From: a virus
Taxonomy: Duplodnaviria; Caudoviricetes
Virus record (IMG/VR): IMGVR_UViG_3300028792_000008
Span: 1 to 38,830 of that record
Length of the DNA stretch: 38,830 bases
Strand: one strand, 5' to 3'
Shown: positions 4,228 through 31,188 of the stretch, one piece after another
Layout of the letters: the number at the start of each line of letters is the position of its first letter
Position numbering within the stretch: position 1 is the first letter of the stretch
Program-made: the position numbers and the translations under genes
Notes under the pieces: generated by a model
Databases searched by the model: none
Told to the model about the DNA's origin: nothing
What the model saw: only the letters and a program-made list of their open reading frames with translations

Positions 4228-4272
4228 CGTTGTCGATGTGTGTACTCTAGTCCTTACTGACGGAGCCGTCAA
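4228..4272 (-). promoter_or_regulatory. Operator-promoter P2
   Basis: Minus strand TTGACG(4272-4267)-17 bp-TAGAGT(4249-4244); near-palindrome TGACGGAGCCGTCA at 4258-4271; CATCGACAACG at 4238-4228. Confidence 0.85.
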
Positions 4273-4282
4273 CAGTAATTTA

Positions 4283-6329: not shown

Positions 6330-7241
6330 GTGCAAATTACCTTTGACACCGCGACCGCGAAGCCCGCCGAACTCTCGGCGCTCTCACGGTTTATCCAAGA
6401 CCTCGCCGCCCTCGGCACGGCGCCGCCCGCCGTTCAGATCGGGGTCGACCCCATGGCTGACCTGCGACCGGTCGCGGCGGTCACGAAACGCACGGGCATC
6501 GTCATCCCGCCCCGCGGCGCAGCGCCCGAAGCCACGGCGCACACGCACGCCCCACTCGTGATCCCCACGCTGATCGCCCCACCCGACCGCCCCGATGCCG
6601 GCAGCCCGCCCGCCGATGACCTCACGGCCGCGGCCGTCTTCGGTGGTCAGAGCATCAGCGCCGCGCCGCCCTCGGCGCCGAGCGTGCCGGTCGTCCCTAC
6701 TGTCCCGGCGGCGCCCGTCGCTGCGGCTGGCCCGGCCTCTGCGACGGCACCCCCGGCCATTGCCGGCGGCCCCCCGGTTGGCGTTGAGCTCGACTCGCAG
6801 GGCCTGCCGTGGGACGCGCGCATCCACGGCAGCACGCGGGCCCAGAACGCGGACGGTACGTGGCGCCAGCGCCGTGGGCTGAACGACGTGGAATTGAAGA
6901 AACGCGTCGAGGCGGAACTGCGCGCGACACTCGCACTGCCCGGGCCTGCTGTGCCGACGCCGCCCACCATTGCCGGCAAGCCGTGGGAGACCGAGCAGTA
7001 CCTCGCCGGCACCGCGGCCGCGCCAGCAGCCCCCGCTGTACCGAAGCCGCCAGCCGCCACCTCGCCCGCCCCCGCGACCTTCGGTGAGTTCATGGGCGCC
7101 GTCTCGAACCTCGTGAAGGACGGCAAGGTGACGGCCGATCACGTGACACGCAAGCTGCAAGACCTCGGCCTGCCGTCGGTCATGGCCCTGGCGAACCGCC
7201 CGGACCTGCTGCCGACCGTGTGGCAAGCGCTGCAGTCATGA
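6330..7241 (+). CDS. Pro/Ala-rich phage replication-module protein
   Basis: Conserved-looking core ELDSQGLPWDARIHGS...NADGTWRQRRG flanked by low-complexity linkers; first gene after P3. Confidence 0.7.
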   Translation: MQITFDTATAKPAELSALSRFIQDLAALGTAPPAVQIGVDPMADLRPVAAVTKRTGIVIPPRGAAPEATAHTHAPLVIPTLIAPPDRPDAGSPPADDLTAAAVFGGQSISAAPPSAPSVPVVPTVPAAPVAAAGPASATAPPAIAGGPPVGVELDSQGLPWDARIHGSTRAQNADGTWRQRRGLNDVELKKRVEAELRATLALPGPAVPTPPTIAGKPWETEQYLAGTAAAPAAPAVPKPPAATSPAPATFGEFMGAVSNLVKDGKVTADHVTRKLQDLGLPSVMALANRPDLLPTVWQALQS

Positions 7242-7471
7242 AGGGCCCGAAGCTGACGCCGTGGGCCGGCGGGCAACCACCGTGTCCCGGCATATGGGAG
7301 CGCGAGTTCCCGGCGTGCCCGCTGTTCGCCTGTTGGACGGGTAGCCAGTGGATGCGCGCCTCAAGATCAATGCGTCGAGCGGAGCGTGCGCGCGAGATAT
7401 CAGCCATACAAATGACGCGCGAAAACGGCGGGCTACGTTGGCGTGGCCTCGCCGAGGAGCCCGAGTCATGA
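7238..7471 (+). CDS. Hypothetical Trp-rich phage protein
   Basis: KLTPW...PPCPGIWER...WTGSQW...WRGLAEEP; ATGA-coupled on both sides. Confidence 0.7.
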   Translation: MKGPKLTPWAGGQPPCPGIWEREFPACPLFACWTGSQWMRASRSMRRAERAREISAIQMTRENGGLRWRGLAEEPES

Positions 7472-8556
7472 ACGGTCACAGTATCCTGGCGCCGTCCAGC
7501 ATGGCGCGCATCGTTCAGTGCGAGGGCTCGCTCGCGATGTCCGCGCTTTACCCGGAGCCCGATGACGACACCGACAGCCGCGACGGTACCGCGGCGCACT
7601 GGGTCTTCGCCGAACTCATGGCGGGTCGAACTGTGGCCGAGGGCCAGATCGCACCAAACGGCGTGGTTCTCGATGACGAGATGATCGACGGCGCGCAGCT
7701 GATGGTCGACACGCTGCAGGCGGCCGACCCGGGTGGGTGGGTCATCGAGCAACCGGTCACGATCCCCGCGGTACACCCGATGTGCTGGGGCACGCCCGAC
7801 GCGTACAAATGGCGCGTACCGTCGGCACGCCTGCACGTGGCTGATTTCAAGTTCGGCCATGGGCTGGTCGAGGTCTTCGAGAACTGGCAACTGATGGCCT
7901 ACGCCATCGGCCTGCTCGAACCCGTGAAGCACCTGCCGGGCATCATCGTTCACCTCACCATCGTGCAGCCGCGATGCCATCACCGTGAAGGGCACGTGCG
8001 GACCTGGTCGACCACATCAGGCGCACTGCGGGCGTACGCCAACATCATGGCGAGCAAGGCTGAGGCGGCGATGGGCGCCACCCCGGCCACGCACACCGGC
8101 CCCGAGTGCATGCACTGCCCCGGGCGCCACGCCTGCACGACCCTGCAGCGCGCGGGGCTCATGGTGTGCGATGTGGTCGGCAAGACCGAACCCCTGAGCC
8201 TCACCGCGGAACAGGCTGGCCAGGAATTGCGACGGCTCACCTACGCGTCGAACCTGCTCAAGGCGAGGCGCACCGGCCTCGAGCAACAGGTGCTATCCGC
8301 GCTGCGTGTGGGTGTGCGGGTGTCTCACTGGCACATTGAGAACGGGCAGGGCCGCGAGCACTGGAAAGACCCCGGCCAGGCGCTCGCCATGGGGTCGCTG
8401 TTGGGGTTGCCTCTCGCCAAGCCCCCCGCGCCGATCACGCCTTCACAGGCGCGTAAGCTGGGCCTCGATACCGCCGGTTTCACAGAACGGTTGACGGGCG
8501 AGGCGAAGCTCGTCGCGGATGACCCGATCGCCGCACGGAAAGTCTTCGGCGCGTAG
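7468..8556 (+). CDS. Cas4-like PD-(D/E)xK exonuclease (DUF2800-type)
   Basis: HSILAPSS..RIVQC, GTAAH, E..V, WGTPD, VADFKFG, QLMAYA, IVQPR, GPECMHCPGRHAC. Confidence 0.88.
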   Translation: MNGHSILAPSSMARIVQCEGSLAMSALYPEPDDDTDSRDGTAAHWVFAELMAGRTVAEGQIAPNGVVLDDEMIDGAQLMVDTLQAADPGGWVIEQPVTIPAVHPMCWGTPDAYKWRVPSARLHVADFKFGHGLVEVFENWQLMAYAIGLLEPVKHLPGIIVHLTIVQPRCHHREGHVRTWSTTSGALRAYANIMASKAEAAMGATPATHTGPECMHCPGRHACTTLQRAGLMVCDVVGKTEPLSLTAEQAGQELRRLTYASNLLKARRTGLEQQVLSALRVGVRVSHWHIENGQGREHWKDPGQALAMGSLLGLPLAKPPAPITPSQARKLGLDTAGFTERLTGEAKLVADDPIAARKVFGA

Positions 8557-8585
8557 TTGACGGCGCCGTCAATAGCGACCACACT
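8557..8585 (+). promoter_or_regulatory. Operator-promoter P4
   Basis: 16-bp palindrome TTGACGGCGCCGTCAA starts immediately after the exonuclease TAG; 17-bp spacer to a weaker -10, CACACT (8580-8585). Confidence 0.7.
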
Positions 8586-8614
8586 CACCACCCCATCATC
8601 AGGAGCAACGCTCA

Positions 8615-9613
8615 ATGAGCATCCGAAACAACATCCTTTTCCCCGTCGGCCGCCTCGTGCAAGGCTCCGTCTACCGTCCGAGCACGACCGACAACGAAGG
8701 CCGCCCGCTGGTCGTCAAGAGCGGCCCGAACGCCGGTCAGCCGCGCGTCGACTATTTCCTCGCTGTGGCCATCGCCAAGCAAGCGGGTCACACGCACTTC
8801 GCGCAAACCGACTGGGGGCGCATCATTTGGGACACCGCCGTGGCCGCGTTCCCTCAAGGTCAGGCACAGGCGCCGACCTTCGCATTCAAGGTGAAAGACG
8901 GCGACAGCACGATCGCGAACAAGGCCGGCAAGCGTCCGTGCGATCAAGAAGGCTGGCCCGGTCATTGGGTCGTGATGATGTCCAGCGGCTACGCATCTAA
9001 GGTCTACACCGCCGACGGCTCGCAGCAGATTGTCGAGCCCGACGCCGTGAAGTGCGGCTATTTCATCCAAGTTGCGGGCTCTGTGGCCGGCAATGAATCG
9101 CTGCAGCAACCGGGCGTGTTCATCAACCACAACATGGTCGCCCTCGCCGGCTACGGCCCCGAGATCATCAGCGGCCCGGACCCGCGCGCCGTCGGCTTCG
9201 GTGGCGGCCCGCTCCCGGCCGGCATGAGTGCCGCCCCTTTGGGTGGTGGGTTCAACCCTGCCGCACCCGCGGCGGGCGTTCCTGGTGCCCTTCCCCCGGG
9301 CTTCCCTGCGAACCCGGCAGCTGCCGCTTTGCCGCCCGCACGACCGCCTGTGATGCCGCCGGCAATGCCAGCCCCCGCGGCGCCGATCGCGGTACAGCCG
9401 AATCCGGCGTTCCTGGGTGCCCCTGGCCCGGCCTCTGCCATGCCGGCTGGTGTGCCGATGCCCCCGGGCCTGCCCACGATGCCGCCTGCTGCCCCCGCCG
9501 CACCGCAGCGCCGCATGACCGCACTCGCTAACGGCGCGAGTTATGAGCAGATGATTGCGGCGGGTTGGACGGACGCCACGCTGCTGCAGCACGGGATGAT
9601 GGCGACGGCCTGA
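8615..9613 (+). CDS. Single-stranded DNA-binding protein (DUF2815/gp2.5-like OB fold) with Pro-rich linker and small C-terminal domain
   Basis: GRLVQGS, FAFKVKDGD, CGYFIQVAGSV, GVFINHNMV; AGGAG RBS; lies between exonuclease and polymerase. Confidence 0.75.
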   Translation: MSIRNNILFPVGRLVQGSVYRPSTTDNEGRPLVVKSGPNAGQPRVDYFLAVAIAKQAGHTHFAQTDWGRIIWDTAVAAFPQGQAQAPTFAFKVKDGDSTIANKAGKRPCDQEGWPGHWVVMMSSGYASKVYTADGSQQIVEPDAVKCGYFIQVAGSVAGNESLQQPGVFINHNMVALAGYGPEIISGPDPRAVGFGGGPLPAGMSAAPLGGGFNPAAPAAGVPGALPPGFPANPAAAALPPARPPVMPPAMPAPAAPIAVQPNPAFLGAPGPASAMPAGVPMPPGLPTMPPAAPAAPQRRMTALANGASYEQMIAAGWTDATLLQHGMMATA

Positions 9614-9729
9614 TCGATCAACGGGGCGGACGAGCCGCATGCTTTGGGTAGGCCCCGCCACGCGCGGCGCCGGCAGCCCCTTGCGACGGTTGTAAATGAG
9701 CCGCCCCACCCCTTACCCCAAGGCTGCCA

Positions 9730-10281
9730 ATGCAACCCATCATCACGCTCTGCGACCGCACGTCCTTCCGTCTCGACGAACCGGAGACGCAGCGATTCGA
9801 CGTCGTTGTGATCGCCCACGCGCTGTCGAAACTCTGCCGCTTCACCGGCCACATCAGCGGGACCTCGATTTACAGCGTTGCGCAACACTCGGTGCTGTGT
9901 TCGTACCTCGTGCCGGCGGAACACACGCTTGACGCGCTCATGCATGACGCGCACGAGGCCTACGTCGGCGACATGAGCGCGCCACTGAAACTCCTGTGCC
10001 CCGACTACTGCCGCGTCGAGCGTCGCGTCGAGATCGCGTGCCGCCGGTCGTTCGGCCTGGCGGACACCAAGAGCGAGGTCGTGGCTGAAGCCGATCACCG
10101 GATGTTCAAAAGTGAGTACGCCGCGTACCTGACCTCTGAGGTCGGCATTCAGGTCGGACGACGATATGGCTTGAACAGCATTCGCGCATGGCTCCCGGAG
10201 ATCGCGAAGTCTCGGTTCCTCGAGCGCTTCGAGGAACTCACCGCCCCGCGCGACATCTGGGCGACCCCGCCAGTCCTATGA
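9730..10281 (+). CDS. HD-domain 5'-deoxynucleotidase-like protein (YfbR/YfdR family)
   Basis: IAHALSKLCRFTGH, YSVAQHSV, ALMHDAHEAYVGD..APLK, ADHRM. Confidence 0.88.
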   Translation: MQPIITLCDRTSFRLDEPETQRFDVVVIAHALSKLCRFTGHISGTSIYSVAQHSVLCSYLVPAEHTLDALMHDAHEAYVGDMSAPLKLLCPDYCRVERRVEIACRRSFGLADTKSEVVAEADHRMFKSEYAAYLTSEVGIQVGRRYGLNSIRAWLPEIAKSRFLERFEELTAPRDIWATPPVL

Positions 10282-11528
10282 CCCCGCGCCCGCCCATTCC
10301 CGCGCTCCTCGGCCACACGGTCGAGATCGCAGATATGGATTTCGAAACATTTTCGACTGCCGGTTTCATCTGGAACGAGGCTGACGGCAAGTGGCGCCCC
10401 CCATCCGGCGCCCCTAAAGGGAAATCCGGCCTGTTCGTGGTCGGCGCCGCGCGCTACACCGAAGATCCGTCGTGCGAGGTCCTGTCGTTCTCCTACGATC
10501 TGAAGGACGGTCACGGCCCGCGATTGTGGATGCCCGGCTGGCCGCCCCCTGTGCCGCTGTTCGAGCACCTGGCCGCCGGCCGCCTGATCGAAGCGTGGAA
10601 CGTCGCCTTCGAGCGCTGGGTGTGGCGCAACGTGTGCGTGCCCAAGTACGGATGGCCGCCACTGCCCGACAGGCAGCTGCGCTGCGCCATGGCGAAGTCG
10701 CGGGCCGCCCAGTACCCCGGCGCGCTGTCGGAGGCCTCTGAGGTCGTTCTAGGCGTCAACCTGAAGGACGCTGAAGGCAAGCGGCTTCTCGACAAGTTCA
10801 GCAAGCCACGCAACCCGACGAAAAAAGACGCACGGCGCTGTATCACGCTCGCTGACGACCCAGTCGACGGCGCCCGGCTGATCGCGTACAACACGCAGGA
10901 CATCCGCGCCGAGGCGGCCGTGTCGCACGCGGTGCCTGACCTCACCGGCATCGATCTCGAGTATTGGTTTGTCGATCAGGCGGTCAACATGCGCGGCGTG
11001 GCGATCGACATGGACGGCGTGCGTGACTGCGTGGCGATCGTCGAGCAGGCGCACGCGAAGTACAACGCTGAGTTGTTCGCGATCACCGGCATTGATGCGG
11101 CGTCCAAGGTGCAGCAAATTCAAGGTTGGTTGCACGCGCAGGGGTGCCACCTCGACTCATTGGACGAAGAGGCCGTGACCACGGAGCTTGAGCGACTCGG
11201 TGAAGTGCTACAGACCGGGGGCGCAGTGTGGCCGGAGGTGGCGCACGTCTACCGCGTTCTGCAGATACGTCAGGCCATTGGGTCAGCCGCTGTAAAAAAA
11301 CTTTACGCAATCTCGAATCAGGTCACGGCCGACGGCCGCCTACACGACCTGTTTTCGTTCCATGCCACACGCACCGGCCGCGCGACCGGCAACGGCCCGC
11401 AACCGACGAACCTGCCGAACAGCGGGCCGAATCTGTGGCTGTGCGAATGCGGGAAGTATTTCGCACTTTCGCACCGTTCGTGCCCGTGGTGCCTCGCGCT
11501 TGTTGACGGCGCCGTCAGTAAGGGTTAA
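10278..11528 (+). CDS. Family A DNA polymerase, N-terminal part (3'-5' exonuclease, thumb, Zn-finger-like insert)
   Basis: ExoI DFET, ExoII AWNVAFE, ExoIII YNTQD, NMRGVAID, TRTGRATG.GPQPTNLP, CECG...CPWC; ATG at 10278 in an ATGA overlap. Confidence 0.9.
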   Translation: MTPRPPIPALLGHTVEIADMDFETFSTAGFIWNEADGKWRPPSGAPKGKSGLFVVGAARYTEDPSCEVLSFSYDLKDGHGPRLWMPGWPPPVPLFEHLAAGRLIEAWNVAFERWVWRNVCVPKYGWPPLPDRQLRCAMAKSRAAQYPGALSEASEVVLGVNLKDAEGKRLLDKFSKPRNPTKKDARRCITLADDPVDGARLIAYNTQDIRAEAAVSHAVPDLTGIDLEYWFVDQAVNMRGVAIDMDGVRDCVAIVEQAHAKYNAELFAITGIDAASKVQQIQGWLHAQGCHLDSLDEEAVTTELERLGEVLQTGGAVWPEVAHVYRVLQIRQAIGSAAVKKLYAISNQVTADGRLHDLFSFHATRTGRATGNGPQPTNLPNSGPNLWLCECGKYFALSHRSCPWCLALVDGAVSKG

Positions 11529-11547
11529 AGTCTCTTCATCGACAACG
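11503..11547 (+). promoter_or_regulatory. Operator-promoter P5 inside the polymerase locus
   Basis: TTGACG(11503-11508)-17 bp-TAAAGT(11526-11531); palindrome at 11504-11517; CATCGACAACG at 11537-11547. Confidence 0.85.
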
Positions 11548-11564
11548 ACTGAGGTGACTGCCAC

Positions 11565-11765
11565 ATGAACACCCCGTACTATCTCACCGCTGAATCCCGC
11601 GCGTTCCTGGCCGCTCGTGCCGCTGAGATTCGCGAGCATCTGCGCCGTCGTCGCGAGGCTCGTGATGCGCCCCGCGCACGCGCCTATCAAGCTGTGGCGG
11701 CACGGATCGTTCGCACGTTCGAGACGCCGTTTGTCATTGGCGGCGAACGGGTCACGCATCCGTGA
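11565..11765 (+). CDS. Small Arg-rich protein (66 aa) inserted between the polymerase halves
   Basis: GAGG RBS, ATG AAC start like the other promoter-cassette genes, and TGA overlapping the GTG of the polymerase C half. Confidence 0.75.
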   Translation: MNTPYYLTAESRAFLAARAAEIREHLRRRREARDAPRARAYQAVAARIVRTFETPFVIGGERVTHP

Positions 11766-12772
11766 CCGCTCGCGAAGTCGAATGGTGCCCCGAGGCCGCG
11801 GCACAGACCCTCGAACTCGTGCGGCATCGCTCGCTTGAGACGATCGAATTCGTCTACGGTGACGCGATGCCCGCTGTGGCTGGATGCCTGCGCGGCCTGT
11901 TCGTCGCGGCTCCCGGTCACGATCTGATCTGCAGCGATTACAGCAGCATCGAGGCCGTCGTGCTGGCCGAGATCGCGGGCGAAGAGTGGCGCCGCGAGGT
12001 GTTCCGCACGCACGGGCGCATCTATGAAATGAGCGCCGCGAAAATCACCGGCGTGCCGATGCCCACTGAAGGCCGACACGTTCACCGCAAGCTAGGGAAA
12101 ATTGCGGAACTCAGTGGAGGTTACCAAGGTTGGATAGGCGCATGGAAGGCTTTTGGAGCCGCTGAGTTCCTGAACGACGAGGAGATCAAGACGGCAATCC
12201 TGGCGTGGCGGGCCGCGTCGCCCTCGATCGTCGAGTTATGGGGCGGGCAACCGTCCCGGCGACGCGGCGAGTATTGGGGCATCGAGGGGTGCGCGATTCA
12301 AGCCGTGCTGCAGCCGGGCCGGGCCTTCGGTTACCGCGGCATCACGCTCCTCATGCGCGGCGACACGTTATTTCTGCGCCTGCTGTCAGGCCGCTTGATC
12401 CACTACCATCGGCCACGCCTCGAACCCAGTCAGCGCCGCGAAGGTGAATATTCACTGAGCTACGAAGGGTGGAACTCGAACCCGAAGAACGGCCCGGTAG
12501 GCTGGATTCGGATGAATACGTGGGGCGGCCGGCTGACGGAGAACATCGTGCAAGCCGTGGCGAACGACATCCTGCGTTTCGCCAGCGTGAACCTTGAGGC
12601 CGCCGGATACCCGATCGTGCTGCACGTCTATGACGAGGTGGCGTGCGAAGTGCCGCACGGCCGCAGGTCCGTCGAGGAACTCGAAGCGATCATGATGCAA
12701 TTGCCCGCATGGGCGGCAGGCTGGCCGATCAGGGCGGCCGGCGGCTGGCGGGGCCGCCGGTATCGCAAATGA
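11762..12772 (+). CDS. Family A DNA polymerase, C-terminal catalytic part
   Basis: Motif A DLICSDYSSIE, motif B RKLGKIAELSGGY, ENIVQAVAND, motif C VLHVYDE, terminal GRRYRK. Confidence 0.92.
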   Translation: MTAREVEWCPEAAAQTLELVRHRSLETIEFVYGDAMPAVAGCLRGLFVAAPGHDLICSDYSSIEAVVLAEIAGEEWRREVFRTHGRIYEMSAAKITGVPMPTEGRHVHRKLGKIAELSGGYQGWIGAWKAFGAAEFLNDEEIKTAILAWRAASPSIVELWGGQPSRRRGEYWGIEGCAIQAVLQPGRAFGYRGITLLMRGDTLFLRLLSGRLIHYHRPRLEPSQRREGEYSLSYEGWNSNPKNGPVGWIRMNTWGGRLTENIVQAVANDILRFASVNLEAAGYPIVLHVYDEVACEVPHGRRSVEELEAIMMQLPAWAAGWPIRAAGGWRGRRYRK

Positions 12773-12804
12773 AACAAGGGATCGACCTGTGACGGCTCGA
12801 CCCC
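12772..12804 (-). terminator. Intrinsic terminator ending the late/lysis transcript
   Basis: Minus-strand stem GGGGUCGA/UCGAUCCC (one GU) followed by UUGUUU, in the convergent intergenic gap. Confidence 0.6.
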
Positions 12805-12856
12805 CTGAGTGGGCTCGCTGACAAGCAACTTCCCCGGTTTGGCGACCTTCAGTCTA

Positions 12857-13087
12857 TCAGACCTTCTCCTCGCCCGGCCCGCCAGCCCCATCCGGCTTGA
12901 CGGCTGTTGCTGCGTCGATAGCCGTCTGCAGCGCGTTGTTCGCCGTAATGGCCTTGCCGCGCACGAACGCGACCTCTTCGGGCGTCAGGTCGCGGCCCTC
13001 GGCCTGCGCCTTGCCGAACAACGTCGACAGTTCGCTCAGGTGATTCAAGCCGGCGAGGATGACTTCGAGGAGTGCAGCTGCGTTCAT
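12857..13087 (-). CDS. Hypothetical helical protein, last gene of the lysis cassette
   Basis: ATGA-coupled to the lipoprotein gene. Confidence 0.7.
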   Translation of the reverse strand: MNAAALLEVILAGLNHLSELSTLFGKAQAEGRDLTPEEVAFVRGKAITANNALQTAIDAATAVKPDGAGGPGEEKV

Positions 13088-13428
13088 GGTGTGGTTGCTC
13101 CGTGGGTTGCGAGAAAGGCCTGTAGGCCGCTCAAGACGGTGATCGCCACCGTGAGGCGTGTGTCGGCCTGCCCGGGACTCGTTTGAGCGAGCTGAGCGGC
13201 CGCATCGAGGCCGGCAAGGGCTTCGGTGTTCGTCTTCTCGACCCGCTGCGCATCCGCCGGCGTGATTCGGCCGGTCACGAGTAGGGTGCGAGCGCTGTCA
13301 GCCACAGCAGCCACAGTGGTGTAGCCGGCCGCCAGGCGCTTCTGGAACGTGTCGGCCGGCGGGACGCCGAGGGACTGGCATGCCGTGAGGCATAGCAGTG
13401 CGATGGTGAGGAGGAATCGGATGATCAT
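13084..13428 (-). CDS. Lipoprotein (possible spanin-type outer membrane lysis protein)
   Basis: MIIRFLLTIALLCLTA-C lipobox; ATG at 13428 in an ATGA overlap. Confidence 0.75.
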   Translation of the reverse strand: MIIRFLLTIALLCLTACQSLGVPPADTFQKRLAAGYTTVAAVADSARTLLVTGRITPADAQRVEKTNTEALAGLDAAAQLAQTSPGQADTRLTVAITVLSGLQAFLATHGATTP

Positions 13429-19381: not shown

Positions 19382-19920
19382 CGCTTGAGCCCGGGATACT
19401 CCGACCGCTTGAACCGCAGCGCGGGGATCGCGATGTTGGCATCGTCATCGAACGAGGCTGTCAGGCGCGCGCCGGCACCGGCGATCTCGAATTTCGACAG
19501 CTCAAAGGCCAACGGGGGTGACTGCGCTAGACGCGTCGTGTCATCGCTCGAGTAGACGCGTTCGATCAGCACCCATTCATCGATCGACCCGCGCGCCGCA
19601 TCGAACACCGGTTTCAGGATGCCGGCCACATCTGACCGGGCAAGCGTCACCGTAGGCGAGGCCGCTGTGTCCGACTCCTCCGGTCGTTCAACCCGCACAG
19701 GGCATGAGATGAACTCCACGACCTCGCCCGCATTGGACGGCGCGTCAGCCTCGAGCGTGGCGAACAGGGGTGTCTTGTCGTCCACAAACCGGAACGGGAT
19801 GGCGACCGTCGGATGACGCAGTTCGTAGGCGTACAGCATCGCTCGGCTGATAGGGGCGATAGCGGCCGCCTCTTGCAGAGCAGTTGTGAGCGTCACCCCT
19901 TTGCGGACAATGTCGGTCAT
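19378..19920 (-). CDS. Minor tail protein (DUF1833 / gpL-position)
   Basis: YELRHP...RFV...TLE...F...P, C-terminal F...YPGL; synteny before NlpC/P60. Confidence 0.75.
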   Translation of the reverse strand: MTDIVRKGVTLTTALQEAAAIAPISRAMLYAYELRHPTVAIPFRFVDDKTPLFATLEADAPSNAGEVVEFISCPVRVERPEESDTAASPTVTLARSDVAGILKPVFDAARGSIDEWVLIERVYSSDDTTRLAQSPPLAFELSKFEIAGAGARLTASFDDDANIAIPALRFKRSEYPGLKR

Positions 19921-20972
19921 GTTGGGAAACTCTCAGGCGGGGTGAAGGGGTGGGTGTAGAACGCGAGACCTCGGAAGACTCGAACCATGTCGTAATGCGC
20001 GGCGTTGCCGAGGTGCGCAGTATCGGTCGCGATCTTTCCGATCGTCATCATCGAGTCTGCGGGCGACGGGTCTGCGATCGAACCGGAGAACCCGGTTTCA
20101 AACGCCACTTCCACGCCGTTCTGCCACAAGGACACGCGATCGTTTTTGCGCGTCGCCGCGAAGTGCGTCCACGCCATTGAGCCGAGAATAGTGTCGGAAA
20201 TTATGGAGTGCTCAACGCCTAGACTCGTCTTCCAGAAGAAGGCCATTTCGTCACCGTGGCCGCCGCCCGCCAAGCCGGTGTAAAACAGCCATGCCGCTGT
20301 CGCGCTTTCCGAATCGGTGATGCCGAACCACGTGCGGCCGTCCAACGGGTTGTTGTCGGGTCGGACCCAAAACTCAATAGTGAAATCCTCGTCACCCAAC
20401 GCCACCCCGGCGTTATACGGGGTCGCAAGGCGCGCCTCGTCGTCAGTCAGGTACAGCGACGAGGCACCGTCGACAAACTGCGAGGTCGAAAGGTACGCCA
20501 CGGTACCGTCCGTCGTCCACCTCGCGCTCGCCGACCCCTCGTCATGAAAGACGGTCGTGTGATCATCTCCGTTGAAACGCATCAAGACGAGGGGTCCGAA
20601 CGCTTCAGGGAACTCACCCACGCCGCGCACCTCAAGGGCGGCCGTGACGCGCCAGAAGCCGCCGGCCAGGAACGTGCGCCGCGGCTGCTGCGTGAATTTA
20701 CGAACGATCGGCACGGCCCCCTGCGGTGTCGGCCAGGTTGCCACGAACCACGCGCCGCCGTATTCAAGATTGCCGCGCCACCATTCCATCAACGTTTCAA
20801 ACTGCGCGGTCGTCAACGGCGGCCATGTCGCCTGCTCCGTCGCGCCTCGATCGCGTTGCAGTGCGCGCGCATCCCGTGGGCGGCGCGGGTCCGACAGTTG
20901 GCGGCGCTCAAGCGGCGCATACTGCAGTAACGCGGGGCACGGCAGGGATTCGGGGTAAGTCTGGGCAGCCAT
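19917..20972 (-). CDS. Distal tail (gpM-like) domain fused to a LamG lectin domain
   Basis: YPESLPCP...EWWRGNLEYGGAWF...FWRVTAALEV, then LMRFNG...DFTIEFWVRP...WTHFAATR...YDMVRVFRG. Confidence 0.75.
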   Translation of the reverse strand: MAAQTYPESLPCPALLQYAPLERRQLSDPRRPRDARALQRDRGATEQATWPPLTTAQFETLMEWWRGNLEYGGAWFVATWPTPQGAVPIVRKFTQQPRRTFLAGGFWRVTAALEVRGVGEFPEAFGPLVLMRFNGDDHTTVFHDEGSASARWTTDGTVAYLSTSQFVDGASSLYLTDDEARLATPYNAGVALGDEDFTIEFWVRPDNNPLDGRTWFGITDSESATAAWLFYTGLAGGGHGDEMAFFWKTSLGVEHSIISDTILGSMAWTHFAATRKNDRVSLWQNGVEVAFETGFSGSIADPSPADSMMTIGKIATDTAHLGNAAHYDMVRVFRGLAFYTHPFTPPESFPT

Positions 20973-26110: not shown

Positions 26111-26619
26111 CAGCCTTTCAGAAGTCGTTTCGCGATGCGGTCGACGGCTTCGACGAGCGAGGCGGTCGCGACCGTGATGGCCGCCTGAGCCTTCGATTTG
26201 ACGGCCGGGCGAATGAACGGTTCGGCCGGTTGCTGACTGCTGCCGTATTCCAGCAGCTGCGCGGTCTGCAAGGTCGTGACGCGCTTCCCCGCCTTCTCGC
26301 GTTTCTTCAATTTTGTCGAGTCGTTCCCCGCACGAATGTACGCGGCCCGTTTGATACGCACGAGATATCGCTCGCCCTTACCGTCGGTCGGGGCCTTGCC
26401 GCGGGTCACGACGACGTGCTTTGCCAAGAACCCGGTCGACGTGTTGCCGCCGGCCGTGGCCGCGTTCAGGTTCGCGATCTCCTGCACCTGAATGACCTTT
26501 GCGCCCTTGCGCAGCGCGGCACGCACCGGGCCGCCTCGTTTGGAGACGACCTCGGCCGGCAGTTGCCGCAGCATGTTGAGCACCTCGTCGGCGCCTTGCA
26601 GTTTGACGGTTTCGGTCAT
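26110..26619 (-). CDS. HK97 gp10-like neck/tail component
   Basis: RAALRKGAKVI...TGFL...LLEYGSSQQPAEPFIRPA; ATG at 26619. Confidence 0.88.
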   Translation of the reverse strand: MTETVKLQGADEVLNMLRQLPAEVVSKRGGPVRAALRKGAKVIQVQEIANLNAATAGGNTSTGFLAKHVVVTRGKAPTDGKGERYLVRIKRAAYIRAGNDSTKLKKREKAGKRVTTLQTAQLLEYGSSQQPAEPFIRPAVKSKAQAAITVATASLVEAVDRIAKRLLKG

Positions 26620-27266
26620 TTGTCGGCCCACCGGTATCGTTTGAACGCGAAGCTCATGATGCTCTCACGGCCGGCCCGAATCTCGAAATCGTCCTTCTCG
26701 AGCAACAGGAACCCGTGGCGTTCCATCCATTGAACGAACCCGTCTTCGGTGAAGTAGTAAAGGTGCTCGCCGGGGCGATAGTGCTTCGACAGCCGCACCG
26801 CGCCGACCGCGTAGAAAATCGGAATGCTCGTGAAAAGGAACCCGCCGAGGTGCACGTGACGGAAATAGGCCTCCGGCTCCGGGACGTGCTCGATCACATC
26901 CCAGAAGGTGTGGGCGCTGAACTCGCCGAGGTGATGCGCCCACAGATCGTTGCGCTTGAGCCATTCGATGGCCACCGGGTTCACGTCGTGGCCGAAAGTG
27001 TTGGGGCGTTTCTTGATGAACTCGCCGGAGCCGATGCCAATGTCAGCCACACGGTTCTGACCGACCCGCCGATTCACCATCGCGATACGGCCGGCGTTGA
27101 TCGCGAGCGCGATCTCCTGATCTTCGTAGGAGGCGCACTTGGCGTAGTACGGCTCGTCATAGGCGACGAGTTGCGACATGTCACGCTGATAGGCGACGCC
27201 GTGCTCGCGGCAAAGCGCGAGATCGTCGTCGATCTCCGCGGGGTGCTGGGCGATGAATCGATCCAT
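26616..27266 (-). CDS. Class I SAM-dependent methyltransferase
   Basis: VADIGIGSGEF, GHDVNP, TFWDVIEHVPEP, EHLYYFT; ATG at 27266 in a TGATG overlap. Confidence 0.85.
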   Translation of the reverse strand: MDRFIAQHPAEIDDDLALCREHGVAYQRDMSQLVAYDEPYYAKCASYEDQEIALAINAGRIAMVNRRVGQNRVADIGIGSGEFIKKRPNTFGHDVNPVAIEWLKRNDLWAHHLGEFSAHTFWDVIEHVPEPEAYFRHVHLGGFLFTSIPIFYAVGAVRLSKHYRPGEHLYYFTEDGFVQWMERHGFLLLEKDDFEIRAGRESIMSFAFKRYRWADK

Positions 27267-27601
27267 CACTCGGCCTCCCCGTTCGTCACGAAACCATGCC
27301 AGCCGCACCCGCCCACAAGCTGAACGGAACGAGTTTTCCCGCGTTCGCCGTCAAGGGTTAGGTCTGAGAACGACGTTCCTTTGAGCGTCCACCGGCCCGG
27401 CCCCGGCCTTATGGCGTCAGGAGTCCCTCGGTCGCTACTCCAGCAGATCACACTATGTGTGCCGCGTGGGTCGCCATTCTTTGCATAGCAGAGAGGACAA
27501 AGAAACGAGACGCCCATTGCCCCGTCGATCGTTTCAACCACCTGAAACGACCCGGACTCAGTGACGCGTAGGAATTCAGGATCGAGTTCGGTCAGTCGCA
27601 T
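27266..27601 (-). CDS. Small Cys/His protein (DUF6527-like)
   Basis: FLCPLC...H...W...LTL...SV...GCGWHGFVTNG; ATG at 27601. Confidence 0.6.
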   Translation of the reverse strand: MRLTELDPEFLRVTESGSFQVVETIDGAMGVSFLCPLCYAKNGDPRGTHSVICWSSDRGTPDAIRPGPGRWTLKGTSFSDLTLDGERGKTRSVQLVGGCGWHGFVTNGEAE

Positions 27602-28083
27602 GGCTTGAACCCCACGCACGCGAACGACCACGCTAGGTCGCGTTCGCTGTGGATGACCCCGACGAAACCGAGATCGGTCATCAGCTGCGCCATCTGCGCC
27701 GGCAGCCACGCGTGCAGGTGCTTGCGGCAGTGCTGGGGGCGCCAATACTCCATATCCGGGTGCGGGAGGTAGAGGAACAGCGGCGCGCCCGGCTTGAGGC
27801 CTTCTTTCCAATGCTCAATGGCACGCACGGGATCAGCCAGGTGCTCGAGGCAGTGACTCGAAAAAATGTAGTCATGTGGCCCTGGCGGCGAGGCCATCGC
27901 ATCGCCTCCGTCGCGCAGTTCGACCGGTGTCGCGCCAGGCAGTGGCCAACGGCCGGCGCCGATGTCGAGACCACTGCCCTTGCAGAATTGCAGCGCGGCC
28001 GCCGTGATGAACTGGCACGCGTTACCGTGCTTGAGGTACTCCGGGTACAGCGCCCCACGATACGTGAATAGAGTGTCGTTCAC
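27592..28083 (-). CDS. Class I SAM-dependent methyltransferase
   Basis: GLDIGAG, DYIFSSHCLEHL.DP, W...LKPG..LFLYLPH; GTG at 28083 in a GTGA overlap. Confidence 0.85.
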   Translation of the reverse strand: MNDTLFTYRGALYPEYLKHGNACQFITAAALQFCKGSGLDIGAGRWPLPGATPVELRDGGDAMASPPGPHDYIFSSHCLEHLADPVRAIEHWKEGLKPGAPLFLYLPHPDMEYWRPQHCRKHLHAWLPAQMAQLMTDLGFVGVIHSERDLAWSFACVGFKPCD

Positions 28084-28655
28084 ACTGCCTCCTCCCACAA
28101 TGCCAAGCCCATGCCGTTGTGCACGACCTCATCGCGCGGAAGCACCGCCGTCGTCAGTGCGAACACGTCCGGTTGCCACGGCCACGCCTCATGAAACAGG
28201 ACCCGGCCGCACCGGCGCACGAGCTCGAAGTCCGTGGCCGTGTCGTTCGCGTGGTCGCCATCGAGATACGCGAAATCGAACTCGCCGCCGAAGCGTTTCC
28301 ATACCTGCGCTTTCTCGGCGTTGTTCTGTATCGCGAAACACTTCACGTTCTTCACGCCAAGGTGACCGAGCACCTCGTGTTTCAGCGGCCGATCCTCGAT
28401 GTCGACCGTGACCACCTCGTCGAAGTAGCGCGAGAGGACTGCGGCCGTCAGACCGTTCCACGTGCCGATCTCGAAGCACCGGCGGCCCTGCACGCCTCGC
28501 TCCGATAGGAACCGATCAAGGCCGTGGAAGACGCTGGAACGGCGCAACACCTCGGCACCGAAGCGCTCATAGGCCGCGAGTAGGTACGGCTCGCGCAGCA
28601 CTGTTTGCACGCGGTCTCCGACTTGTTTTTCGATTGACTCAGACCAGAATTGCAC
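28080..28655 (-). CDS. Class I SAM-dependent O-methyltransferase-like protein (Methyltransf_24 type)
   Basis: CFEIGTWNGLT, VTVDI, FDFAYLDGDH, VLFHE. Confidence 0.82.
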   Translation of the reverse strand: MQFWSESIEKQVGDRVQTVLREPYLLAAYERFGAEVLRRSSVFHGLDRFLSERGVQGRRCFEIGTWNGLTAAVLSRYFDEVVTVDIEDRPLKHEVLGHLGVKNVKCFAIQNNAEKAQVWKRFGGEFDFAYLDGDHANDTATDFELVRRCGRVLFHEAWPWQPDVFALTTAVLPRDEVVHNGMGLALWEEAV

Positions 28656-28659
28656 TCGT

Positions 28660-29322
28660 TCACCCCTTCATGATTTTAGTCAATCGCGCATCCATCGTGA
28701 CGCGGTCGAGATTCGCGGCCAGCCACTTCCGTTCGAGCTCCGGCGCGTGCCCGATCGGGTCATCGGGGTTGCCCGGCCGCCACGGTTCGTTGACATTGTG
28801 CACACGCGAACTGAAGAAGTCGAAGCCCGTCGCGTACACGCTGGCCGGCGCGTGCTCAAGCACCGCCAGCAGCGCGGAAAACCCGGTGCTTGGGATGTGG
28901 CGGTCCAGCATGTTGAACACCGCCAGGAACTCGTCAAGCATCGGCACGTAAGTCGGGCAAAACCACCAGTCCCGCCGGTGCCGGTAGATGTATCGGAAGT
29001 CGACGCCATTGGGCTTGTTCATCCGCCGGTGCCACTCTGAATCCATGAACTTTGCGTCAGGGCATTTACACACGCACAGCTTGACGCCATCGGCCTTCAA
29101 CTCGTCCGCGGTTTTCTTGATCGAGTCTCCGAAGAAACTGTAATGCACGTCGGTGCGGTAGCCCTGCGCGGGACCCGTTTTGTAGTTGTTCACGCGCACG
29201 ACCACGTCAAACCCGTCGATGACGCCCGGCGCGTTGTCGAGACATCCGGGGCCGCTGCCGACGACGGCAACGCGCTTGCCGTCGAACATGGCGGCAAGGT
29301 CTCGCTTATCGCAGAAAATCAT
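28660..29322 (-). CDS. Sialyltransferase-like glycosyltransferase (GT29-like)
   Basis: L-motif-like RVAVVGSGP...IDGFDVVVRVNNY...GYRTD; S-motif-like PSTGFSALL...VYATGFDF; VS-like H....E; GAAAGG RBS before ATG 29322. Confidence 0.78.
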   Translation of the reverse strand: MIFCDKRDLAAMFDGKRVAVVGSGPGCLDNAPGVIDGFDVVVRVNNYKTGPAQGYRTDVHYSFFGDSIKKTADELKADGVKLCVCKCPDAKFMDSEWHRRMNKPNGVDFRYIYRHRRDWWFCPTYVPMLDEFLAVFNMLDRHIPSTGFSALLAVLEHAPASVYATGFDFFSSRVHNVNEPWRPGNPDDPIGHAPELERKWLAANLDRVTMDARLTKIMKG

Positions 29323-30094
29323 AGGCGGCCTTTCGTATTCCATCCTTGTCGTCATCCATGACCGCGATGGTTGTCGCCGGTTTGTGGATGACCTTCAGCG
29401 GCGTGATCTGCCGCACGTAGGGGTGCCCCGCTCGCAAGCCCCGCTGCGACCACACCATGATCGCCGGTTTGTTGAACGACTCAGCCAGGGGCAGCATGAA
29501 CGAGCAGTAACCGAGGAACCCGTCGGCCGCACTGGCGACATCGAGCAACTGCGCGACGGTCGTCTGATTCGAGAGGTCGATGTCGATACCGGTGAAACGA
29601 TAGAGCGGCTCGCCGGCGCCGACTTGCACGATCAACGCGCGCTCGCGCAGCACATCGATGGCGAGTTGAATCGATCGGCAGTCGGGCAGCAGCTCCGCAC
29701 CGAAACCATCGGTGCGCCCCATCGGAGACCGCGGCAGTTGCACGAGCACGAGGGGGCGACCGGCCGTATGAATCAGGTACTTGACCATGAGCGAGGCATC
29801 GCTGACGCCCCAGTCAAGCCGCAGATCGACCGGCCCGACGATGCCGGCCGCTTGGCAACAGTCCTCGAACTGCGTCGTCCCCGCGCGCCCCTTGCGCGCC
29901 GAGTAGTGCGCGACGATGTCGACGTTTCGATTAAACGGCGTCACTTCGACTCGATCGGCGAGCGGTCGGAACACGTCGGGGTAGTCCGAGCGCACACGCA
30001 TGCGGCGATGCACGCCGGTTTCGATCAGGTGACGCACAACGCTCTGCAGATAGAGCGAGTCGCCGAGGCCGCGGCCACATCGGATGGTTTTCAC
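29306..30094 (-). CDS. GT-B fold glycosyltransferase (GT9/heptosyltransferase-like)
   Basis: GRGLGDSL, IVQVG, IDLSNQTTVAQLLDVASAADGFLGYCSFMLPLAESFNKPAIMVW; GTG at 30094. Confidence 0.8.
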   Translation of the reverse strand: MKTIRCGRGLGDSLYLQSVVRHLIETGVHRRMRVRSDYPDVFRPLADRVEVTPFNRNVDIVAHYSARKGRAGTTQFEDCCQAAGIVGPVDLRLDWGVSDASLMVKYLIHTAGRPLVLVQLPRSPMGRTDGFGAELLPDCRSIQLAIDVLRERALIVQVGAGEPLYRFTGIDIDLSNQTTVAQLLDVASAADGFLGYCSFMLPLAESFNKPAIMVWSQRGLRAGHPYVRQITPLKVIHKPATTIAVMDDDKDGIRKAAYDFLR

Positions 30095-30104
30095 TGTTTC
30101 TCGT

Positions 30105-30236
30105 GTCGGGTGTTTTGGTGAGTGACGACAGTCGCCGCATTCCCCGGTCGCCGGGGCGCGCACATCCTTCGTCTCGCGATCTGCAGAGCGCACCTTCCGC
30201 AGAGGCGTCGAGTCGCCACTCACCGAAACATCAGAC
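30105..30236 (-). ncRNA. Candidate structured RNA / inverted-repeat element
   Basis: 25-bp imperfect terminal inverted repeats (21/25) enclosing internal hairpins; begins at the predicted +1 region of P6. Confidence 0.5.
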
Positions 30237-30244
30237 TCCGGCGC

Positions 30245-30273
30245 ATGATGCGGGTTATTGACGGCACCGTCAA
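30245..30273 (-). promoter_or_regulatory. Operator-promoter P6 inside the late operon
   Basis: TTGACGGCACCGTCAA at 30258-30273; minus strand TTGACG-17 bp-CATCAT(30250-30245). Confidence 0.7.
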
Positions 30274-30860
30274 GAGAGGATCGACTCCAATGGCGCGCGA
30301 GGAAAACACGTGAGCGCGGTTTCCCGCGAGCAGTTTACGACCTCGATGCCGAGAGACTGTGCGCGCCGGGCAACTTGTTTGAAATGGTGCGGCCATCGCG
30401 GCATTGAAACGGCGTTGCCCAAGGTCTTCGGGTGGTCTCCGTGCCAGTGTGTCATGCCGCCCGTTTTCTGGCAGTCATACCCCAGCAGGACGACCCGCTT
30501 CGCGCCGCTCGCGAGGGCCAGCGAGATCGCCGCTGCGCCACTGTTGTGGTAGGTCGTGAACCACTGCGCCCCGTGCAGCGTGGGCACGCCCAACGCACGG
30601 CCGACGGGTGAGCATGTGAGACGCTCACCTTTGAAAACTTTCGACACTTCACTCAGATGCTCGCGCCACCATCGCGCGTCGAATCCGAAAAGAACGTCAG
30701 CCCACGGGCACAGGCGAAACGTCGTGTTCGTGACGATGGTATGCAGTCCGGCCACATGCACGCGATCGCAGTCTTCGCGCGTGAGGCTTGGGCCGCTCGC
30801 CAGGCATGCGACCGTCCGACCCGCCCACCGGTCGCGCCAGTGATCAACCTTGGTTGACAT
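30270..30860 (-). CDS. Glycosyltransferase-like protein (Maf/DUF115 / GT29-GT42-like fold)
   Basis: TVACLASGPSL, IVTN...ADVLFGFD..WW, NSGAAAISLA...GAKRVVLLGYDC, HWHG, VVNCSR.TAL.CFP; ATG at 30860. Confidence 0.72.
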   Translation of the reverse strand: MSTKVDHWRDRWAGRTVACLASGPSLTREDCDRVHVAGLHTIVTNTTFRLCPWADVLFGFDARWWREHLSEVSKVFKGERLTCSPVGRALGVPTLHGAQWFTTYHNSGAAAISLALASGAKRVVLLGYDCQKTGGMTHWHGDHPKTLGNAVSMPRWPHHFKQVARRAQSLGIEVVNCSRETALTCFPRAPLESILS

Positions 30861-31188
30861 TCGACGAGCACGGCAACGTAACGAACCGGATGCCACTGGC
30901 CGGGTCGGGGATGACACCTTCGATGTTGTAAACAACCCCGCGGTGCACGATGCGCATGCGCGCCAGCAAGCCGGGCAATGTGCGCAACGTGATGCGATTC
31001 GACACGCGCGACTGCACTGCCTGCGCGGCGATGAGCTCACGCGCCGACAGCGCGACGATCTCGGCCGGGACATGGCTCGCGAAGGTCATCCAGCCTTCGA
31101 CGATGTTGCCGTCCGAGTCTTGTGAAGTCACGAGGTCTTCGACATCCACGCGATGACGCAGGCGCCCCGCCCGCAGAGGCTTGCTCAT
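30844..31188 (-). CDS. Head closure / head-tail adaptor (SPP1 gp16-like)
   Basis: AGRLRHRV...QDSDG...W...AEI..LSARE..AAQ...RMRIV.RG.VYNIEGV. Confidence 0.9.
   Translation of the reverse strand: MSKPLRAGRLRHRVDVEDLVTSQDSDGNIVEGWMTFASHVPAEIVALSARELIAAQAVQSRVSNRITLRTLPGLLARMRIVHRGVVYNIEGVIPDPASGIRFVTLPCSSNVNQG

Follow-up and report, generated by a model that had tools for sequence, protein, structure and literature searches.

Does a phage DNA polymerase gene that is interrupted within its polymerase domain still specify one working enzyme, and how would its parts be produced together? This question is raised by a 38,830-nucleotide stretch of DNA (IMG/VR record IMGVR_UViG_3300028792_000008, hereafter the window), in which the family A DNA polymerase (PolA) is predicted not to be a single chain, being encoded by two ORFs in different frames, with a promoter-like sequence and a small ORF between them.

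The divided polymerase gene and its surroundings

The window is a linear virus record, ∼68% complete, of a tailed phage whose terminase, capsid, portal, tail and lysis genes lie on the minus strand. Its replication module comprises genes for a helicase, a nuclease, a DUF2800 exonuclease, an ssDNA-binding protein, an HD phosphatase and PolA (Table 1). No second polymerase was detected among the window ORFs scanned, and as the record is only ∼68% complete, one could sit elsewhere. Outside this module, a cluster of methyltransferase-like and sialyltransferase-like genes is located between the head-closure and tail-completion genes (26616-31073, minus strand), and two distant minus-strand ORFs (1088-1813 and 19917-20972), one of them outside the structural module, match the same virion-protein PHROG families (phrog_24074, phrog_3545).

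Table 1. Coordinates of the features at and upstream of the divided polA gene of the window.
Feature	Position	Strand	Remarks
Replication genes upstream of PolA	6330..10281	+	Pfam/PHROG matches
phrog_11133 protein	within 6330..10281	+	PHROG match
Promoter copies in upstream replication region	6267 and 8557	+	
DUF2800/phrog_69 exonuclease	7348-8556	+	Pfam/PHROG match
phrog_7011 ssDNA-binding protein	8615-9613	+	PHROG match
HD phosphatase	9730-10281	+	TGA overlapped by PolA N-half ATG (10278)
PolA N subunit (predicted), 416 aa	10278..11528	+	phrog_17; motif and alignment evidence
CECG...CPWC codons (C389-C405)	11442..11492	+	Predicted zinc-binding knuckle pair, zinc from the pattern only
Phage promoter copy	11503..11531	+	-35 TTGACG, 17-nt spacer, -10 TAAAGT
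Palindrome TGACGGCGCCGTCA	11504-11517	+	Overlaps the -35 box
GAGGT, ribosome-binding-site-like	11551..11555	+	9 nt before ORF66 start
ORF66, 66 aa (PYYLTAESRAFL...)	11565..11765	+	Probable passenger, member of a small family of phage proteins
PolA C subunit (predicted), 336 aa	11762..12772	+	GTG start; begins VTAREVEW

The N half carries the 3'-5' exonuclease residues D21, E23, E112, Y204 and D208, the thumb and the TGR motif of the palm (R365-N378); the first-pass annotation had termed it the exonuclease/thumb half, which holds for these two domains and has to be extended by the palm motif. Its C-terminus reads CECG...CPWC-LALVDGAVSKG, where CECG...CPWC opens a stretch of ∼64 residues that is inserted, specifically in this family, between TGR motif and motif A, and the last 11 residues are read from promoter sequence, the stop codon (TAA, 11526-11528) being part of the -10 box TAAAGT. 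ORF66 comes next, ending in a TGA that overlaps the C-half GTG (GTGA). The C half scores above the PF00476 cut-off and contains motif A (DYSSIE at 59, with D59), motif B (RKLGKIAELSGGY at 109, with R109, K113, L117 and Y121) and motif C (HVYDE at 288, with D291 and E292). The split is thus as it had originally been described and the two predicted products together have the motifs of a family A DNA polymerase, with the catalytic ones intact. The leucine of motif B (K-IAE-L-SGG-Y, 12086-12124) presumably corresponds to Phe762 of E. coli Pol I, and a leucine variant at that position is linked to slower or temperate phages.

PolA enzymes hold on to the primer-template with the thumb and the arginine of the TGR motif, and from what is generally known of them neither half would polymerise alone. 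It had been suggested that the arrangement could change the ratio of polymerase to proofreading activity. This idea is weak because thumb and palm (TGR) residues are held by the N half, and the C half, which has neither, would not act as a polymerase by itself.

Position, recurrence and maintenance of the break

The insert was found in another assembly. One contig (X1), possibly from the source run and therefore not independent of the window, covers the region in one piece and without differences, and another (X3) covers 11712-11897. A contig from a different study (X2) spans 10429-12226 at ∼94%, differing in 98 letters and by 14 gaps, and retains the insert; misassembly, against which the first-pass annotation had advised a check, is thereby ruled out. 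No joint skipping the insert was present among the contig matches listed, and contigs say nothing on absence. No RNA data set was among those listed as containing the region.

Most relatives are uncut at this site. The polymerase reads through the break site in 30 of the 31 homologous loci fetched first (the remaining one does not contain the site), in 102 of 103 viral loci chosen by an EW...motif A pattern (some contigs being redundant), in all four of nine GTDB loci that had a polymerase match, and in the four new loci of a further IMG/VR scan. Between the last CxxC and EW, 53 of 57 intact rows have a linker of 8-12 residues; in the window 11 residues follow CPWC and 6 precede EW. A split intein, which would need Hint-domain pieces on both sides of the gap (ending HN-C/S/T), was rejected, as this leaves no room for one and there is neither an intein motif nor a Pfam intein match. 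When aligned to Taq polymerase, TGR...NLQNIP extends up to profile position 364 and the pre-motif-A segment starts from 435, with 6 Taq residues between them. By this alignment, the cut sits in the ∼64-residue family-specific insertion, inside the polymerase domain and absent from Taq. In a structural model of an intact relative (L155, pLDDT 93), which has a Klenow-like fold (E 1e-15 against the Klenow fragment), the cut falls in a loop that is followed by a strand just before EW. The window C half folded alone gave a pLDDT of 94, but the residues before EW were unstructured (block pLDDT 69).

Comparison with unsplit homologues thus maps the break to just after the cysteine knuckles, and the same break recurs in three further loci that were read at the DNA level. 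The gap amounts to 233 nt in the window, 711 nt in L098, 1731 nt in L146 and 2016 nt in L147, the last two representing one lineage. In L098 the N half ends CPEC...GDIPF and is followed by a gene for a 237-aa PAPS-reductase-like protein, whose end is overlapped (ATGA) by a C half starting MTATRTEW. In L146 and L147 the N half ends CPWCGSSVE, clusters of small ORFs follow, with one and two TTGAC-N6-GTCA promoters, respectively, and the C half starts VTAHKVEW or MTARKVEW. The start of the C half overlaps the stop codon of the preceding ORF (GTGA or ATGA) in all four split loci; a fifth locus, L145, shows TAAATG at a contig edge. At the protein level, 19 of the 120 C-half matches listed (the window's own included) start within ∼10 residues of EW, nine of these 19 with [MV][TS]Axx[VTI]EW, a start found in none of 59 intact linkers, and 10 other N-half matches end 0-20 residues after the last cysteine; these are candidates at the protein level, most of them lacking genomic context, and some are surely gene-caller or contig-end artefacts. 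An attempt to reconstruct the insertion site as CLA/SVTAREV (260 nt) was abandoned: as the VTA start is common to split forms and absent from the 59 intact linkers, it is probably not leftover linker. Microhomologies at the window junction are at chance level by a rough estimate.

All split loci come from metagenomes, and no cultured phage with this split was seen among the isolates checked. The closest cultured relatives (phrog_17, 47-53% identity), namely Shewanella phage SppYZU01, Stenotrophomonas phage B2, Acinetobacter phage Scuro and Vibrio phage VP16C, have unlike the window a single polymerase ORF that is uncut at this site, with adjacent coordinates for the two matches and one annotated gene under both where listed.

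Other breaks were noticed in the same family. A second split site lies in the thumb region, at about residues 304-314 of the window N half (L089:685-4003; P0004, P0006, P0008-P0012, P0016); it has a 99-aa filler ORF with an ATGA overlap to MTPAAHEAL and forms one clade of 13 rows. Seven further proteins (P0137, P0139, P0140, P0143, P0147, P0150, P0158) stop shortly past CLRGLF, immediately ahead of motif A, which may represent a third split site, at the position of that in phage MEP401, and could also reflect introns. Several freed N halves, that of the window not among them, end in DIPF, DVPF or TTPF (L098:1750-1771; P0138, P0204, P0235), ends that we take to resemble the C-terminal tail of bacterial SSB. 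By eye, inteins or intein pieces occur at the TGR motif and motif B in many relatives (...VHNC ends and in-frame insertions in P0022, P0025, P0031, P0042, P0063 and others; L023, L028, L089).

A divided gene could simply be dead or dispensable, with the host polymerase being used and the halves persisting as relics or in separate roles. The split loci are all metagenomic and the function of their products is a prediction, which leaves room for this reading; we nevertheless regard it as very unlikely, for silent changes are strongly in excess in both halves after the split and motifs are intact in lineages that are 54-65% identical. Of the differences between X2 and the window, 40 of 71 were shown; 38 of these are substitutions in 11069-11480, 32 of them at third codon positions, with only three codons changing the residue, and two more lie in the promoter-derived tail of the N half, both residue-changing. 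Between L146 and L147 the C halves have a pN/pS of 0.044 (88 silent, 12 replacement), and all seven differences in the last 47 N-half codons are silent. Furthermore, all nine motifs were found in each of the three complete split pairs tested. The statement that neither half looks decayed is therefore borne out, and recurrence, silent-site excess and the loop position in the L155 model agree with a break that was made at an insertion-tolerant place and is maintained.

Contents of the gap

The fillers of the window, L098 and L146/L147 are unrelated to each other. Within the L147 gap the C-half start occurs once more as a stranded copy (VTARKVEWG), which we read as the trace of a cassette added at this point. 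A stand-alone winged-helix domain is also encoded inside this gap (L147:5045-5332, minus strand), with a homologue in L146; it resembles the N-terminal part of the CapW/BrxR regulators of defence (PDB 7tb5, E 1e-12), and the protein is possibly a decoy or a regulator.

If the gap were an unrecognised self-splicing intron, its removal from the RNA would yield one full-length polymerase. The window junction GGGU/UAA presumably resembles the start of some phage group I introns. Introns are moreover common in phage PolA genes, and one was suggested for MEP401 in the available text of that report (PMC10580990). However, no Rfam family came near its gathering score in 11300-12000 of the window or in L098, L146, L147, L089 and L032, and the window insert folds no better than its shuffled versions (z -1.46); no group I or group II ribozyme core was found in the window insert or in the relatives searched. 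The fillers, which are 0.23-2.0 kb in length and dense with ORFs, and the common start peptide and stop/start overlap of the C halves likewise speak against an intron, which we consider highly improbable. The remark that intein and intron hallmarks are missing is in keeping with these results.

Ribosomal bypass of the T4 gene 60 type would also join the halves, and the window does contain a matched GGT pair in the right frames, with a take-off codon at 11523-11525 just before the TAA and an in-frame landing codon at 11750-11752. The take-off codon is not kept, for close relatives (P0132, P0260/P0261, P0133, P0262) have G, S, A or D as the final residue of their N half, and the gap, 8 nt shorter in X2, extends to 2 kb in L147. 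To our knowledge, known bypasses cover ∼50 nt or less, and the chance that a bypass operates here appears almost negligible.

The internal promoter is weak by its consensus alone, as two sigma70-like matches including this one were found in 8400-13200 against a shuffle mean of 0.6. The palindrome TGACGGNNCCGTCA is present in six exact copies in the window, and with up to two mismatches it gives 15 matches versus 3.4 expected. Copies overlapping a -35 box are located at 1073, 4258, 6268, 8558, 11504 and 30259, and the 47-nt stretch at 11501-11547 matches the copy at 4228-4274 by 81%. TTGAC-N6-GTCA was seen in 24 other fetched loci (some of them redundant), often just after an intact polymerase gene, and is therefore the promoter type of the polymerase family itself. 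The promoter had been called operator-controlled, a term we cannot sustain since no repressor for the palindrome was identified among the window ORFs scanned. Nor is the promoter an essential part of the arrangement: it is present in three of the four split gaps read, the L098 gap being free of any TTGAC-N6-GTCA promoter.

ORF66 belongs to a protein family with seven representatives at 36-60% identity. It had no Pfam or PHROG match and no Atlas match at 0.9, and a single-sequence scan of IMG/VR was empty. In X2 it shows a net loss of 9 nt by compensating indels in its middle, with the frame staying open (compare P0124). The first-pass annotation had proposed that the small protein might be an accessory factor, and it could accordingly be a lineage-specific third subunit or a regulator of the polymerase, with the internal promoter tuning the ratio of subunits. 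Its conservation as a protein family and the frequent presence of a promoter in the gaps would fit this, as would the ORF66 homologue P0255 and the N half P0134 (67% N-half identity), whose longest contigs are both 12226, hinting that the two stay together. On the other side, ORF66 is missing from the gaps of L098, L146 and L147 and had no match in five of five related records searched whole, including three split ones, although these are fragments and weak evidence; its middle tolerates compensating frameshifts; and its homologues in L161 and L162 lie behind sigma70-like (TTGACA) promoters, with no PolA match within 6-8 kb. A role as subunit or regulator is thus unlikely. Because its homologues are the first genes behind promoters in loci without PolA, ORF66 is best read as an early gene close to a promoter, together with which it arrived, a passenger and not a subunit. 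Where it now stands, it probably provides the ribosomes that go on to translate the C half.

Origin, precedents and meaning

The arrangement is most probably a heritable fission of the PolA gene that gives a two-subunit enzyme, with the C half translationally coupled to the ORF preceding it. Under such a fission, the polymerase would be made from two genes cut in the loop just after the four-cysteine knuckle pair, and the two proteins would likely come together by folding into a single functional enzyme, with no splicing involved. Translation of the C half would be coupled to any ORF whose stop falls on the C-half start codon, in the window ORF66, the transcript coming from the internal promoter or having begun further upstream. 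The first residues of the C half (TAxxVEW) may form a beta-strand paired with the N-half knuckles, as judged from secondary structure only, no contacts having been seen. After the split, cassettes of a promoter and a small gene would come and go in the gap as in a neutral slot, and ORF66 would have arrived as such a cassette.

In the trees the split forms are spread over two or three groups, and several of the protein-level candidates scatter among intact rows. One single split clade was rejected by the C-half tree (p-AU 0.0025, 38 of 123 rows) and was compatible with the N-half tree (p-AU 0.46, 36 of 78 rows), where both trees were quick LG+G4 trees and the groups were chosen after the first tree had been seen. 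The [MV][TS]Axx[VTI]EW start shared across groups fits either one origin spread by recombination or a constraint on the docking strand. A more far-reaching reading, which we put forward tentatively and hold to be doubtful, is that fission created a reusable gene socket. The junction module of knuckle-stop and MTAxxVEW would spread between diverged phages by recombination, and the C-half strand would dock on the zinc knuckle to rebuild the palm. The cargo (anti-defence-like wHTH, DNA-modification enzymes, early small proteins) would stay expressed through the coupling of its translation to that of the essential catalytic subunit, in a family seemingly cut at three sites and with several N-half ends bearing SSB-like D-x-P-F tails.

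Among the precedents, the window PolA appears to resemble most that of the OM43 phages MEP401 and MEP402 (Zobellviridae), in which PolA occupies two ORFs with a small ORF of unknown function between them (PMC10580990). In MEP401 as in the window, a family A polymerase is cut between the TGR motif and motif A, gp13 ending ...TGRLSSSSPNLQNFDGEIKTLFLSRYGE and gp15 starting at motif A; however, MEP401 represents another PolA lineage without cysteine knuckles, and its cut lies ∼45 residues later, directly before motif A. The available text of that report leaves intron versus split open and does not mention variable fillers (PMC10580990). An active precedent is provided by split family B polymerases, the bicistronic gp43 of Aeromonas and Acinetobacter T4-like phages, whose genes are separated by 2 bp to 3 kb of DNA that is diverse, as far as the accessible part of the source goes (PMC3061061). 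Like gp43A/B, the window polymerase has two separate subunits (predicted here from the genes), a recurrent split in a variable loop, variable intervening DNA and conserved halves, whereas gp43 is a family B enzyme cut at the finger tip and the window enzyme belongs to family A and is cut in a palm insertion. In S-SBP1-like T7-like cyanophages, an exo/pol fission of PolA without splicing is described in the accessible text, the parts being predicted to stay associated (PMC10201439; clade B in PMC12695635). There the cut separates whole domains, the genes overlap and no cargo is present, whereas in the window the cut follows the thumb and TGR motif and divides the polymerase domain itself. In the literature searched, at the extent to which these sources were accessible, there was no report of a split at this site or in this family, and the supplementary tables of PMC10201439 could list such sequences. 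Split polymerases are hence known as such, and this cut site inside the palm region is not described in the papers found, as far as their available text shows.

Taken together, two chains that result from a cut in the palm region can likely make up a family A polymerase domain, and the cut of the window would offer a natural cut point for the engineering of split polymerases. Surveys of phage PolA would miss such split genes or call them pseudogenes. The variable gap furthermore points to an essential gene that may act as a slot for accessory genes.
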